This document shows positions 46,328 through 62,894 of a stretch of DNA of 64,000 nt, piece by piece. A program made the translations under genes and the position numbers. Position 1 is the first letter of the stretch. Each line of letters begins with the position of its first letter. The notes beneath the pieces were generated by a model that worked only from the letters and a program-made list of their open reading frames with translations, did no database searches and was not told the DNA's origin. Origin of the DNA: Escherichia coli (GTDB lineage Bacteria > Pseudomonadota > Gammaproteobacteria > Enterobacterales > Enterobacteriaceae); assembly GCF_024700885.2 (NCBI RefSeq), contig NZ_CP117016.1; one strand, written 5' to 3'.

Positions 46328-46407
46328 CAAATCAGAACCACTCGCATGGCGGGTGGTTATCTGTTTCAGCCACGATGCGCCAGAAACAGACTAAAGTCAG
46401 AAAAGTA

Positions 46408-46438: not shown

Positions 46439-49075
46439 TTACTCGTCAGCGTCGTCTGCGACATCATCGTCGCTTTCCACTTCCGGAGCGATTTCATCGT
46501 CCCCTTCCGCGGCACTGCCATCGATGGTATCCAGATCTTCCTCGTCAACCGGTTCAGCAACACGTTGCAGACCCACTACGTTTTCATCTTCCGCAGTACG
46601 GATGAGGATCACGCCCTGGGTGTTACGACCTACGATGCTGATTTCCGAAACGCGAGTACGTACCAGCGTACCGGCATCAGTGATCATCATGATCTGGTCG
46701 CAGTCATCTACCTGCACCGCGCCAACCACTAAACCGTTACGTTCGGTAACCTTGATGGAGATAACCCCTTTCGTCGCACGCGACTTAGTCGGGTATTCCG
46801 CCACTGCGGTACGTTTACCATAACCGTTCTGCGTTGCGGTGAGGATTGCGCCATCGCCACGAGGCACGATCAGAGAGACGACTTTATCGCCTTCACCTAA
46901 GCGAATACCGCGAACACCGGTGGTGTTGCAGCCCATCGCACGGACAGAAGACTCTTTAAAGCGCACCACTTTACCTTCGGCGGAGAACAGCATTACTTCA
47001 TCTTCGCCGCTGGTCAGGTCAACGCCGATCAGCTCATCGCCTTCAACCAGTTTGATCGCCACTTTACCGGCGGTACGCAGACGGTTGAATTCGGTGAGGA
47101 CGGTTTTCTTAACAGTACCGTTAGCGGTCGCCATGAAGACTTTCACGCCTTCTTCAAACTCGGTCACCGGCAGGATCGCGGTGATACGTTCGTCCTGCTC
47201 CAGCGGCAGCAGGTTGACAATCGGACGACCGCGCGCGCCACGAGTGGCTTCCGGCAACTGATAGACTTTCATCGAATAGACGCGACCACGGCTGGAGAAG
47301 CACAGAATATGGTCGTGGGTGTTCGCCACCAGCAGTCGGTCAATAAAGTCTTCTTCTTTAATACGTGCGGCAGATTTGCCTTTCCCGCCACGACGCTGCG
47401 CTTCGTATTCAGAAAGCGGCTGATACTTCACGTAGCCCTGGTGAGAGAGCGTCACAACCACATCTTCCTGAGTGATCAGATCTTCCAGGTTGATGTCTGC
47501 GCTGTTGGCGGTGATTTCAGTGCGACGTTTGTCACCGAACTGTTCACGAACCAGTTCCAGCTCTTCGCGGATCACTTCCATCAGACGATCGGCACTGCCA
47601 AGAATACGCAGCAGTTCTGCGATCTGATCCAGCAGCTCTTTATATTCGTCGAGCAGTTTTTCGTGCTCAAGGCCGGTCAGTTTCTGCAAACGCAGATCCA
47701 GAATCGCCTGGGCTTGCTGTTCGGTCAGGTAGTACAGACCGTCACGCACGCCGAACTCTGGCTCCAGCCATTCCGGACGCGCAGCATCATCGCCCGCACG
47801 TTCGAGCATGGCGGCAACGTTGCCCAACTGCCACGGATTAGCAACCAGCGCAGTTTTCGCTTCTGCAGGCGTCGGCGCATGACGGATCAGTTCGATGATC
47901 GGGTCGATGTTCGCCAGCGCCACGGCTAATGCTTCAAGGATATGAGCACGATCGCGAGCTTTACGCAGTTCGAAAATAGTACGACGGGTCACCACTTCAC
48001 GGCGGTGACGAACAAACGCCGCGATGATGTCTTTCAGGTTCATGATCTTCGGCTGACCATGGTGCAATGCCACCATGTTGATACCGAAAGAAACCTGCAA
48101 CTGGGTCTGGGAGTAGAGGTTGTTAAGCACAACTTCACCGACCGCATCGCGTTTCACTTCAATCACGATGCGCATACCGTCTTTGTCAGACTCGTCACGC
48201 AGCGCGCTGATGCCTTCCACGCGTTTTTCTTTTACCAGTTCCGCAATCTTCTCGATCAGGCGCGCTTTGTTCACCTGATACGGAATTTCGTGGACGATAA
48301 TGGTTTCACGTCCGGTTTTGGCGTCAACTTCCACTTCAGCACGGGCGCGGATATATACCTTGCCGCGACCGGTACGGTAAGCTTCTTCAATACCGCGACG
48401 ACCATTAATGATTGCCGCCGTCGGGAAGTCCGGCCCAGGAATGTGTTCCATCAGCCCTTCAATGCTGATGTCTTCATCATCGATATACGCCAGACAACCG
48501 TTGATGACTTCCGTCAGGTTGTGCGGCGGGATGTTGGTTGCCATACCTACGGCGATACCGGAAGAACCGTTCACCAGCAGGTTAGGAATTTTGGTTGGCA
48601 TGACGTCGGGAATTTTTTCCGTGCCGTCATAGTTATCAACGAAATCGACCGTCTCTTTTTCGAGATCGGCCATCAGTTCATGGGCAATTTTCGCCAGACG
48701 GATTTCCGTATAACGCATTGCCGCCGCAGAGTCGCCGTCGATGGAACCGAAGTTACCCTGACCGTCTACCAGCATGTAACGCAGCGAGAATGGCTGCGCC
48801 ATACGGACGATCGTGTCATAAACCGCCAAGTCACCATGGGGATGGTATTTACCGATTACGTCACCAACGACACGGGCAGATTTTTTATAGGCTTTGTTCC
48901 AGTCATTGCCTAGTACGTTCATGGCGTAAAGTACGCGACGGTGTACCGGCTTCAGGCCATCTCGGACATCTGGCAGCGCACGGCCAACAATGACCGACAT
49001 CGCATAATCCAGATAGGAGCTCTTCAGCTCTTCCTCAATGTTGACCGGTGTAATTTCTCTCGCAAGGTCGCTCAT
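46439..49075 (-). CDS. gyrA: DNA gyrase subunit A (878 aa as encoded), carrying S83L
   Basis: [19 protein letters not shown]-terminus, active-site region, acidic C-terminal tail; codon 83 reads TTG (Leu), codon 87 GAC (Asp). Confidence 0.95.
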
Positions 49076-49221
49076 CTAACCGCTATCCCTCTACTGTATC
49101 CCGGATTCAAAGGTCGCAAATTATAACACAGCCGCGCAGTTTGAGGTAAACCTATACGCTTTATTCACATCCAATGCCTGATATACTCGTTTGTCTTGCC
49201 AATTACGGAGTAGAAGTGCCA

Positions 49222-59137: not shown

Positions 59138-60328
59138 TTAATGAATTTCTTTTGCCACTACTAGCGCGACACCGCTTTTACCCTTCATTTGCAGCGCATA
59201 GACTCCACCAGCCACTACCACTAATAGTGCACCCAGCAGATAAATCATTCGGTAGCCAGTATGTGCAACCATCATCCCCATCACACAGGCTCCCAGCGCC
59301 AGGCCTGCATCCATCGCATTGAAGAAGAGGGAGTTTGCGACACCGATTTTATGCGGTTCCACTGAACTGATAATCTGCGTCTGAAAAACTGGCGTCACGG
59401 AACCATACCCGATACCAATCAATGCGCCAGAAACAACCATCATTATGCTTCCCTGGGTGTAGCCGAGAACCACCAGTCCTACCGTAAAGAACACAAGGCA
59501 AGGGTAAACCACATATTTCGGTCCTTTTTTGTCGCAGACATTGCCGGTAAAGGTACGGCAAATCATCAGGAAGATAGCGTAGCAAAGCAGGAAATTACTG
59601 GCTGCCGACATCAGGTTAAGTTCGCGTGCATAAAGCGCCAGAAAAGCAGAAACCCCGGCATACGAAAAGGTCATAAAAAAGGTGACCATCGCAAATGGCA
59701 ACGCCGCGCGATCGAACATGGCGGCGAAGCCCATTTTCGGCGTTGAACCATCAGCATGGCTGATAACCGGCGGCACTGTCATAATCAGCGACAGAATAAT
59801 CCCCACCGCTGCCACGCCGGTGCATAGCCAGAAAGCCAGATTAAAGGCTTCCCAGCGCGCCATATTCAGACCAATCCACGGCCCGACCACCATTGCCATC
59901 CCCATTGCCAGAGAGAAAAAACTGATGCCCTCCCCACGTCGGGAGGCCGGGATCAGCCGCGCGGAAATCGTTCCTTTTACCGTAGTGATAACCCCGAAGG
60001 TAATACCATGAAGCACCCGAATAAAAAGCAGTGATTCAATTGAGTGGCAAAAAGGATACAGCGCAGTGACCACCAAAAAGGCCAGAGAAGAGAGCCCCAG
60101 AATAGTTTTATTCGAATATTTACCTACCCATTGCCCGGCAAAGGGGCGAATAACAATGGCGGCAATTAAAAATAAAGTCACCAACAAACCTGCTTTATCA
60201 GGAGAGGCATGCAAGCGGTCTGAGATATAAATTGGCAACAATGTTAGTAAAACATAAAAGACGAAGAAAATAATAAAGCTGATGATGGTTATTGCCCAAA
60301 AATCCTTCGTCCATAACTTCTCTTTCAT
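59138..60328 (-). CDS. MFS transporter, 12-TM (396 aa)
   Basis: Hydrophobic segments throughout; MFS-type loop 2-3 motif (GQWVGKYSNK); divergent from the LysR gene. Confidence 0.8.
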   Translation of the reverse strand: MKEKLWTKDFWAITIISFIIFFVFYVLLTLLPIYISDRLHASPDKAGLLVTLFLIAAIVIRPFAGQWVGKYSNKTILGLSSLAFLVVTALYPFCHSIESLLFIRVLHGITFGVITTVKGTISARLIPASRRGEGISFFSLAMGMAMVVGPWIGLNMARWEAFNLAFWLCTGVAAVGIILSLIMTVPPVISHADGSTPKMGFAAMFDRAALPFAMVTFFMTFSYAGVSAFLALYARELNLMSAASNFLLCYAIFLMICRTFTGNVCDKKGPKYVVYPCLVFFTVGLVVLGYTQGSIMMVVSGALIGIGYGSVTPVFQTQIISSVEPHKIGVANSLFFNAMDAGLALGACVMGMMVAHTGYRMIYLLGALLVVVAGGVYALQMKGKSGVALVVAKEIH

Positions 60329-60479
60329 ACCCTACCGCCTGTCAGGATGACGCACGCAGACAACACTCCCGTTACTGCGGTTGCGTCAAATTGTGATGTA
60401 CTTTGCAGAACAGAAGTATAAATGGCGGCATGCTATTAGAGAAATTAATCGTTTTAATATTATTGATTAGCAAACTCTA

Positions 60480-61358
60480 ATGACTCTTACCCAAATAAAT
60501 TCTTTACTCGCCGTGCTGGATTACGGTGGCTTTACTGAAGCCAGCAAGCGATTGTTCATGACGCAGTCGGCGGTAAGTCAGGCAATTGCTGCCCTCGAAC
60601 AAGAACTTGGCGTGAGTATACTGTTACGCGATCGCCGTAAAGCTATACAACTGACCGCAGCAGGTCATCGCATTGTGCATCATCTGCGCGCCATTAATCG
60701 GGAAGTGAACGCAGTAAAAGAGATAGCCGAGCAGGAAAAGCAGAACCCTCAAAGAACGCTGAGACTTGGTTGTTTCCCCAGCGTCTGCGCCTGTATCTTA
60801 CCGGCTGTGATTCGCTACTTTGAAATTCATCATCCGAATATAAAAATTATTCCTTTTGAGGAAAATAGCACAGCGATTATTGATTCCCTTCAGAATGAAT
60901 CCATTGATGCCGGTTTTGTTCATTTTCCGGTGAGCGGAATGTACTCCGTGCCCATTTATCAGGATAAATTCACCGTAGTGTTACCGCCCAACCATGCTCT
61001 GGCAAAAAACAGCACTATTACAGTGGAAGAGTTAATGGGTGAACCATTAATTATTAGTAAAGGACGCTATGAATTAAGCATTATGGCACTATTTAAAGAA
61101 AAGAATATTACCCCACAGATAAAATATGAATTTAATCACCCTGATACAGCGATCAGTTTTATTCGACAGGGATTAGGCATCGCCTTATTACCAGAGTTAA
61201 CGCTGAAAACCATTGCAGATGAATTGTGTTCCGTTCCTCTCGAACCAACCTTCTATCGACAGATTTCGTTGCTGGCTAAAGAAAAGCCGGTAGAAGGCAG
61301 TCCACTGTTTTTACTGCAAATGTGTACGGAACAACTCGTGGTGAGTGGAAAAATTTGA
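60480..61358 (+). CDS. LysR-family transcriptional regulator (292 aa)
   Basis: N-terminal HTH (GGFTEASKRLFMTQSAVSQAIAALEQELGVSILLR) and LysR substrate-binding domain; ~150-bp divergent intergenic region shared with the MFS gene. Confidence 0.85.
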   Translation: MTLTQINSLLAVLDYGGFTEASKRLFMTQSAVSQAIAALEQELGVSILLRDRRKAIQLTAAGHRIVHHLRAINREVNAVKEIAEQEKQNPQRTLRLGCFPSVCACILPAVIRYFEIHHPNIKIIPFEENSTAIIDSLQNESIDAGFVHFPVSGMYSVPIYQDKFTVVLPPNHALAKNSTITVEELMGEPLIISKGRYELSIMALFKEKNITPQIKYEFNHPDTAISFIRQGLGIALLPELTLKTIADELCSVPLEPTFYRQISLLAKEKPVEGSPLFLLQMCTEQLVVSGKI

Positions 61359-61513
61359 TGTAAGACATGAGATTGATGACAAATGCAAGACTGCCTGATT
61401 CGCCACACTTAGTTGTACTATAGCCTTTACCAGGCGTAATAATTCGTTTTCACCTGATTTTGGCCCACTTTGTGAATTGGCGATATATATTTATCCAGTT
61501 GGGAGAAGTGACA

Positions 61514-61645
61514 ATGACTCCAGGTAGAAATCGGTATGAAGCGCCCGACTCACTGTCAAAACCGATCGTTGAGAGTAATGACACTCCGGCGAACAGTACA
61601 CAGTTTACTCTGGAGCCATTCTCAATCTTCAAGTGGGATACCTAG
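61514..61645 (+). CDS. Candidate small protein (43 aa), unknown function
   Basis: ATG at 61514 preceded by GGGAGAAG 7 nt upstream; MTPGRNRYEAPDSLSKPIVESNDTPANSTQFTLEPFSIFKWDT; no homolog recognised. Confidence 0.4.
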   Translation: MTPGRNRYEAPDSLSKPIVESNDTPANSTQFTLEPFSIFKWDT

Positions 61646-61823
61646 TAACTTTTCAGGGAAGTTATCAATATCTGTTTGTTACTTATTACCGTATTTATTA
61701 ACAATAATGATACTTTCTACCATGCGTAAAGGTCTTCGTAATAAAATGAGCTAAATTTGATAGTGAATATATTTTGCAAAGATTAGATTGTATCTTGTTA
61801 ACTCACAATACAAGGAATCATTT

Positions 61824-62894
61824 ATGCCAAATACATCTATTCACTTATCTCGCTGTAATATTTTACAAAATAATAAATTGCAACCAGCAGAAATTTACAA
61901 AGAATCACAACAAACCGCGAAACTTGAGTTTTTTTGCGATGAGTTTCTAAAAATATCTCAAAGTAGATACGGGTTATCAACTTCAGCAGACAGCATAGCT
62001 AATTTATTGGCTTTTTTCACGAAAGCCTCAGATGCAATTGATAGTATCAAGACCCAAAAAATTGACGTTCACAGTTATGGTTTCGTACCAATAAGACATT
62101 TTGTCGAACATGTCATAACGTATAAAAATGAATTTGCAGCGGATTATGAACCCTATACCCTTACCTTTACCCGAGGTGAAAACAACGAAGGTATTTTGAG
62201 TGTCGAAAGCAAAGAAGGGTTTATTTCACAAAGAACAATAAACTTAAATGAATATGAAACTGCAATTAACATCATCAATGAACATGTTATAAAAGAAAAT
62301 ATCCACAACACGGTCCAGTCACCGACAGAAAAAGACATTTCAAAAATAAACAGCTCTGATAAACCTTATAAAACCAGCAGTGAGGAAAGTATTAAAAGTC
62401 AACTTTACAGCGATCAAAAAAAATATACAGACCTGCTACTACATTCTGAGAAAAATACAGAATGGTACAAATACGCATCCTCCGTGGAACGCTATGATAA
62501 ATTCAAGAATTCTTCTAAGGAAATTAAAAATACCTACAAGCAAATTGTACAAGCGCAGAAAAAATTGAACCAAATGAAATACATCAATAAATTAAGTGGT
62601 GAGCTTATCGATATCGCCGACAAAAAGTTAGCACCATTAATAAATGATAGTTTCAGCTATACACGAGATTTCTTTGCTTACTCAAAACAGGAAAATAACA
62701 TCTTCACGTTTGATAATTCTAAGTTTGAAGATCCAAAGGAAAAAAAAGGTTTAATGGTACAACACAGCAATGGACAACTGGTTATTACTGGTGAATATTA
62801 TCCTGAAGGTGTGCAAATAGCATTCACTCAAGAACAATATAATAAATTAATAAGATACATTAATATTTTCTTTACTTTCCCGAAATGCGAATAA
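61824..62894 (+). CDS. Hypothetical protein (356 aa) in an AT-rich islet; no recognisable domain, no signal peptide or TM segment
   Basis: Long ORF (track 61788-62894); preferred start ATG 61824 with AAGGA SD 8 nt upstream; ~30% GC and Lys/Asn/Ser/Glu-rich composition unlike the flanking core genes. Confidence 0.65.
   Translation: MPNTSIHLSRCNILQNNKLQPAEIYKESQQTAKLEFFCDEFLKISQSRYGLSTSADSIANLLAFFTKASDAIDSIKTQKIDVHSYGFVPIRHFVEHVITYKNEFAADYEPYTLTFTRGENNEGILSVESKEGFISQRTINLNEYETAINIINEHVIKENIHNTVQSPTEKDISKINSSDKPYKTSSEESIKSQLYSDQKKYTDLLLHSEKNTEWYKYASSVERYDKFKNSSKEIKNTYKQIVQAQKKLNQMKYINKLSGELIDIADKKLAPLINDSFSYTRDFFAYSKQENNIFTFDNSKFEDPKEKKGLMVQHSNGQLVITGEYYPEGVQIAFTQEQYNKLIRYINIFFTFPKCE

Follow-up and report, generated by a model that had tools for sequence, protein, structure and literature searches.

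The gyrA gene in the analysed window (a 64,000-nucleotide stretch of Escherichia coli contig NZ_CP117016.1) encodes leucine instead of serine at position 83 of DNA gyrase subunit A, and this S83L substitution is almost certainly real. The genotype is associated with a low-level, first-step quinolone phenotype, in which the ciprofloxacin MIC is raised and stays below the clinical breakpoint, and the moxifloxacin MIC lies at or just over its own breakpoint. The initial annotation had placed TTG at codon 83 and given the peptide of the quinolone-resistance-determining region (QRDR); the coordinates, codons and peptide all proved correct when the minus strand was read again, as did the retained GAC (Asp) at codon 87. 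The positions of these and other features of the locus are collected in Table 1.

Table 1. Features of the gyrA locus in the window, with the basis of each assignment.
Feature	Position in window	Strand	State and basis
gyrA CDS, DNA gyrase subunit A	46439..49075	-	878 aa + stop; ORF list, translation, TIGR01063
Catalytic Tyr122 (AAMRYTE)	48710..48712	-	intact; sequence read
GyrA box QRRGGKG, aa 560-566	47378..47398	-	intact
QRDR, codons 67-106	48758..48877	-	same as K-12 save S83L
Codon 83, TTG (Leu)	48827..48829	-	S83L, C248T vs wild-type TCG; sequence read; K-12 and sister alleles TCG
Codon 87, GAC (Asp)	48815..48817	-	wild type; sequence read
Codon 678, GAA	47042..47044	-	D678E vs K-12, background polymorphism outside QRDR; alignment
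Codon 799, ACT	46679..46681	-	synonymous C2397T; window and MLI114 only, vs six lineage alleles sampled
Variant gyrA 3' end, acidic tail	46439..46475	-	K-12 has ...EVDVDDEPEEE, then stop; alignment with K-12

Judged from its sequence, the gene is an intact, functional E. coli gyrA. The six-frame ORF list contained a single long ORF of 878 aa at this position on the minus strand, which begins with ATG (49075-49073), as read on the minus strand of 48700-49150, and has no internal stops in its translation. The protein scored 1307.9 bits against the NCBIfam equivalog model TIGR01063 (gyrA; cutoff 877), and 578.9 bits with the parC_Gneg model, which is below the cutoff of 628.9. Matches to the solved structures of E. 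coli GyrA, 3nuh and 6rks, cover residues 1-525, and the record of strain MLI114, 100% identical across gyrA, annotates the gene as gyrA. Both the catalytic tyrosine and the GyrA box are preserved; the latter, QRRGGKG, is the motif that separates GyrA from ParC. The chromosomal context is also typical of E. coli gyrA, with ubiG and yfaL adjoining the gene on one side. The neighbour on the other side is atoB, where K-12 has yfaA.

Codon 83 is TCG in gyrA of K-12 MG1655, and the difference in the window is thus C248T. The two genes differ by 78 nucleotides. Of these, 57 synonymous and two non-synonymous changes (S83L and D678E) fall within codons 1-866, a ratio that argues for strong purifying selection on gyrA; one of these two amino-acid changes falls on the canonical resistance site. 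The other differences cluster in the last ~37 nt, which encode the acidic tail. No second QRDR change (D87N/Y/G) is present, and codons 67-106 are otherwise those of K-12.

A megablast search of gyrA against 5,426 complete E. coli genomes returned NZ_CP117013.1, strain MLI114, as the best match (100%), with the same TTG at codon 83. The entire window corresponds to MLI114 positions 1758512-1822511 (reverse complement), with 63,999 of 64,000 bases identical. The sole mismatch is at window 25162 in mqo (G vs A, window + strand); read by hand, the codons are GTC and GTT, both encoding Val, and the difference is synonymous. MLI114 is an ST349, CTX-M-15 human stool isolate from a soldier in Koulikoro, Mali; it is multidrug-resistant, and its CTX-M-15 is chromosomal (PMC10198576). 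MLI121 (NZ_CP117016), to which CP117014 also belongs, is the sister isolate of MLI114, from which it is separated by 14 cgMLST alleles (PMC10198576).

The T at nt 248 could in principle be a sequencing or assembly error concealing a true TCG codon, as it is a single-base call and the window and RefSeq MLI114 do differ at one other base, a sign that versions can vary slightly. The public MLI114 assembly, however, has the identical TTG. The sequencing was performed with Illumina plus Nanopore, S83L was reported independently for MLI114 and MLI121, and the raised MICs fit the substitution (PMC10198576). Moreover, three other genomes with the same allele have the TTG, strains JNE070796 and MS1685 among them, and TTG83 is found in 2,294 of the 5,426 genomes. 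An error at this base is extremely improbable, and we rejected it on the strength of the TTG in the public MLI114 record and the published calls for two sister isolates.

Only ~26 of 5,425 genomes align over the full 2,637 nt of this gyrA allele in the megablast search. We sampled six genomes with the same allele: JNE070796, MS1685, 1190, SW4848, VTB96933v and NA3664. TTG83 occurs on it in JNE070796 (O166:H15, Japan) and MS1685 (chicken, USA), in addition to MLI114. The nearest wild-type alleles sampled, those of 1190, SW4848, VTB96933v and NA3664, have TCG83 in four of four cases; apart from nt 248, the only site at which they depart from the window is nt 2397, a synonymous position in codon 799. 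Because all four carry TCG and otherwise differ at one synonymous site, Leu83 is derived, a C-to-T point mutation that sits on the haplotype of the lineage itself. We also note that the ACC-to-ACT change at codon 799 (window 46679) is a handy marker of the sub-lineage.

The same relatives bear on the proposal that Leu83 is a neutral polymorphism specific to the lineage and its unusual 878-aa allele of gyrA, and leaves quinolone action untouched. The allele is indeed rare and also carries D678E and a variant tail, and MLI114 is formally ciprofloxacin-susceptible (PMC10198576). Nevertheless, Ser83 is present in all four sampled wild-type members of the allele, and also in the other 878-aa alleles, those of 19KM1831 and N3. 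In addition, the MICs of MLI114 exceed those of determinant-free isolates (PMC10198576), and S83L has documented effects in biochemical and in isogenic comparisons (PMC9917921, PMC2714960). A neutral polymorphism was rejected since same-allele relatives have TCG, and we assign it a negligible probability.

Another matter is whether the derived Leu83 arose de novo in this strain. It may instead have been imported from another resistant E. coli by homologous recombination, or passed down by clonal descent within ST349 from a sub-clade with S83L, and we consider such a history possible, albeit rather unlikely. Recombination at gyrA is known in E. coli. The same allele with S83L is found in the O166:H15 strains from Japan and the chicken isolate from the USA, and since these share the allele, a common descent of S83L within ST349 is conceivable. 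On the other hand, the 25 kb around gyrA show no visible imported tract when 1190 is compared with the window: strain 1190 had a bit score of 46156 vs 46167 for an exact match, which corresponds to ~two mismatches, and its gyrA differs at nt 248 and nt 2397 and nowhere else. Identity across the lineage as a whole is at least 99.97% over these 25 kb (2-5 SNPs, megablast), and owing to this uniformity a single and a repeated origin of S83L in ST349 are indistinguishable from the region. Import or inheritance would concern history only and leave the effect of S83L unchanged. Quinolone exposure would have selected S83L somewhere in the ST349 ancestry.

The frequency of the substitution was estimated across the same 5,426 complete genomes using 30-mers, chosen so that each 28-base megablast seed word spans the diagnostic bases; as exact 28-mers are required, the resulting counts are lower bounds. 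TTG83 was found in at least 2,294 genomes (1890 + 404; 42%) and TCG83 in at least 2,767 (711 + 2056), with some other variant within the codon-83 30-mer in ~365 genomes. The combination of TTG83 with GAC87, as in the window, was found in at least 484 genomes (412 + 72; 8.9%). The difference, 2,294 - 484, corresponds to 1,810 TTG83 genomes in which the TTG83...GAC87 30-mer is not matched exactly, a mismatch most simply attributed to a codon 87 change. S83L is among the commonest resistance mutations known, and it has already been published for MLI114. A copy of gyrA with the TTG83 30-mer also occurs in one record that bears a plasmid label; this may be a chromosomal contig binned wrongly or a genuine duplication.

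That most TTG83 genomes (1,810 of 2,294) have no exact TTG83...GAC87 match, and that the strain is a multidrug-resistant CTX-M-15 producer, would be in line with S83L being one component of a multi-step, high-level genotype, together with D87N, parC S80I/E84, parE changes or qnr/aac(6')-Ib-cr. Codon 87 is GAC, however, and the other targets argue against such a genotype as well. The parC and parE genes lie outside the window and were read in the near-identical MLI114 chromosome, where they were located from exbD. ParC of MLI114 has no change at S80 or E84, and D475E is its sole difference from K-12. ParE of MLI114 has no change at positions 416, 445, 458, 460 and 529 (L416, L445, S458, E460, I529), and its C-terminal 499 residues are identical to those of K-12.

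The plasmids of MLI114 agree with this picture. By annotation, no plasmid-mediated quinolone-resistance gene, such as qnr or aac(6')-Ib-cr, is present on the 8-kb p8_MLI114, which carries only mph(A)/mrx/mphR, and none is present on p80_MLI114 (80.8 kb) over its first 50 kb, which are an IncI1 backbone. The published table likewise shows no qnr/aac(6')-Ib-cr on either plasmid, and no resistance gene on p80 (PMC10198576). The authors described MLI114 (ST-349) as 'positive for gyrA S83L only', with gyrA:p.S83L as the sole quinolone determinant and a ciprofloxacin MIC of 0.125 mg/L (PMC10198576). The initial annotation had recommended inspecting parC S80/E84, parE and plasmid-borne qnr/aac(6')-Ib-cr; the two chromosomal targets turned out to be wild type in MLI114, and no such plasmid gene was found on p8, in the first 50 kb of p80 or in the published table. 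A hidden multi-step genotype was rejected for MLI114, given wild-type parC and parE and the plasmid sequences read (p8 and the first 50 kb of p80), and we consider the chance that it exists to be vanishingly small. In the sequences covered (gyrA QRDR, parC and parE), S83L is the only quinolone target change found.

The published MICs fit a low-level phenotype. For MLI114 they are 0.125 mg/L for ciprofloxacin (S) and 0.5 mg/L for moxifloxacin (R), and for MLI121, also with gyrA S83L, 0.25 mg/L for both ciprofloxacin (S) and moxifloxacin (S), whereas the determinant-free isolates MLI102 and MLI104_2 have ciprofloxacin MICs of <=0.0625 mg/L and moxifloxacin MICs of <=0.0625-0.125 mg/L (PMC10198576 Table 1). 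As MLI114 and MLI121 are one doubling dilution apart across the breakpoint, the moxifloxacin category is not robustly 'resistant'. The reading of S83L as a first-step, low-level determinant, put forward in the initial annotation, is backed by the wild-type state of the other targets and by these MICs. Its second claim, reduced fluoroquinolone susceptibility, is supported by the ciprofloxacin MIC of MLI114 in relation to that of the determinant-free isolates (0.125 vs <=0.0625 mg/L). Nalidixic acid resistance of the strain would be expected from S83L.

In terms of mechanism, the single C-to-T transition replaces Ser83 by Leu in helix α-4, within the DNA-gate region and at the quinolone contact site. 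Ser83 and Asp87 of E. coli GyrA anchor a water-metal-ion bridge to the quinolone (PMC9917921). This water-Mg2+ bridge positions the keto-acid of the quinolone in the cleavage complex, and the bulky Leu83 is expected to break it, with the result that the drug would stabilise gyrase-DNA cleavage complexes much less. As reported for the purified enzymes, GyrA S83L gyrase was strongly desensitised to ciprofloxacin, with cleavage at only ~half that of the wild type even at 500 µM, whereas S83A gyrase was not ciprofloxacin-resistant, and this suggests that the bulk of Leu disturbs the bridge sterically (PMC9917921). In isogenic MG1655, S83L raised the ciprofloxacin MIC from 0.016 to 0.38 mg/L (24-fold) at a relative fitness of 1.01, and the combination of S83L, D87N and ParC S80I was needed for high-level resistance, 32 mg/L (PMC2714960). 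With wild-type D87, ParC and ParE, and with no quinolone gene found on a plasmid, S83L acts alone and would give a low-level first-step phenotype. The essentially absent fitness cost may explain why S83L is so widespread.

The substitution in the window is the same as the E. coli GyrA S83L listed in AMR databases (gyrA_S83L or gyrA:p.S83L) with respect to the gene, the codon, the TCG-to-TTG change and the low-level phenotype. The two are functionally equal and differ only in the background allele, which here encodes 878 aa and carries D678E and the variant tail. The window also shares the first mutation of the pathway leading to gyrA S83L+D87N with parC S80I, as in ST131-H30, ST1193 and strain LM693. 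Unlike in that genotype, D87, ParC S80/E84 and ParE are wild type here, and the ciprofloxacin MIC of the triple mutant is 32 mg/L (PMC2714960), compared to 0.125 mg/L for MLI114 (PMC10198576).

GyrA S83A, present in MLI105 (PMC10198576) and in an engineered enzyme (PMC9917921), affects the same residue. In contrast to S83L, its small side chain keeps the Asp87-anchored bridge, and the purified enzyme is not resistant to ciprofloxacin (PMC9917921). ParC S80I of topoisomerase IV changes the homologous serine and follows the same water-metal-bridge logic as GyrA S83L (PMC9917921). Unlike S83L, it has no MIC effect on its own in E. coli (PMC2714960), and it is absent in MLI114.

For surveillance, the strain counts as non-wild-type with respect to quinolones. 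Another one or two mutations would make it clinically resistant to ciprofloxacin, and its chromosome already carries CTX-M-15. The S83L mutation, its mechanism and its effect size had all been established beforehand, and nothing in them is scientifically new.

The 3' end of the gene deserves a separate comment. GyrA in the window has 878 aa, compared to 875 aa in K-12, where the protein ends in ...APEVDVDDEPEEE. Nearly all E. coli have a tail other than the 878-aa one, which only ~26 of 5,425 complete genomes possess. Homology between the window and K-12 breaks off between window positions 46339 and 46475, that is, over the gyrA 3' end and the gyrA-atoB spacer, and the right-hand breakpoint is located within gyrA itself, at a distance of 37 nt from where the stop codon ends. 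In this gap K-12 has ~10 kb with yfaP-yfaQ-yfaS-yfaT-yfaA and its own last gyrA codons, whereas in the window atoB abuts gyrA. Tail and neighbour agree in all five E. coli genomes inspected: the 878-aa tail is accompanied by an adjacent atoB in the window/MLI114, 19KM1831 and N3, and the 875-aa tail by an adjacent yfaA in K-12 and strain 746.

We searched 100,044 species, each represented by one genome, with a degenerate DNA pattern for the 10-residue end of the 878-aa tail. The pattern matched 33 loci, 31 of which are an exact GyrA C-terminus, in genera and taxa that include Salmonella enterica subsp. arizonae, Citrobacter, Kluyvera, Enterobacter, Trabulsiella, Cedecea, Shimwellia and Pluralibacter. 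Since this GyrA end recurs at 31 loci in many Enterobacteriaceae genera, the rare 878-aa allele probably keeps the ancestral GyrA terminus. On the simplest reading of the five E. coli genomes inspected, the common E. coli tail would then have been created where gyrA meets the yfaPQSTA (alpha-2-macroglobulin) cluster. In E. coli gyrase, the acidic tail reportedly tunes the wrapping of DNA and the set-point of supercoiling. Hypothetically, the rare tail could alter gyrase activity and hence what S83L does to fitness or MIC in lineages such as ST349, although we regard this as quite improbable.

Between glpQ and inaA (window 59138-62894), which are presumably adjacent in K-12, the MLI114 annotation places three genes, for a hypothetical protein (frameshifted), a regulator of the LysR family and an MFS transporter; together they may be a small lineage-specific islet. 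The yejO gene (window 7477-10068, minus strand) encodes an intact 863-aa autotransporter according to the annotation of the identical MLI114 stretch, and its K-12 counterpart is, we assume, an interrupted pseudogene. Outside the window, at 840-890 kb of the MLI114 chromosome, lies a large island that contains IS66, an adhesin of the Ag43 family and a complete T6SS. The latter includes Tle1/Tli1-EAEC, and its tssK is annotated as frameshifted.
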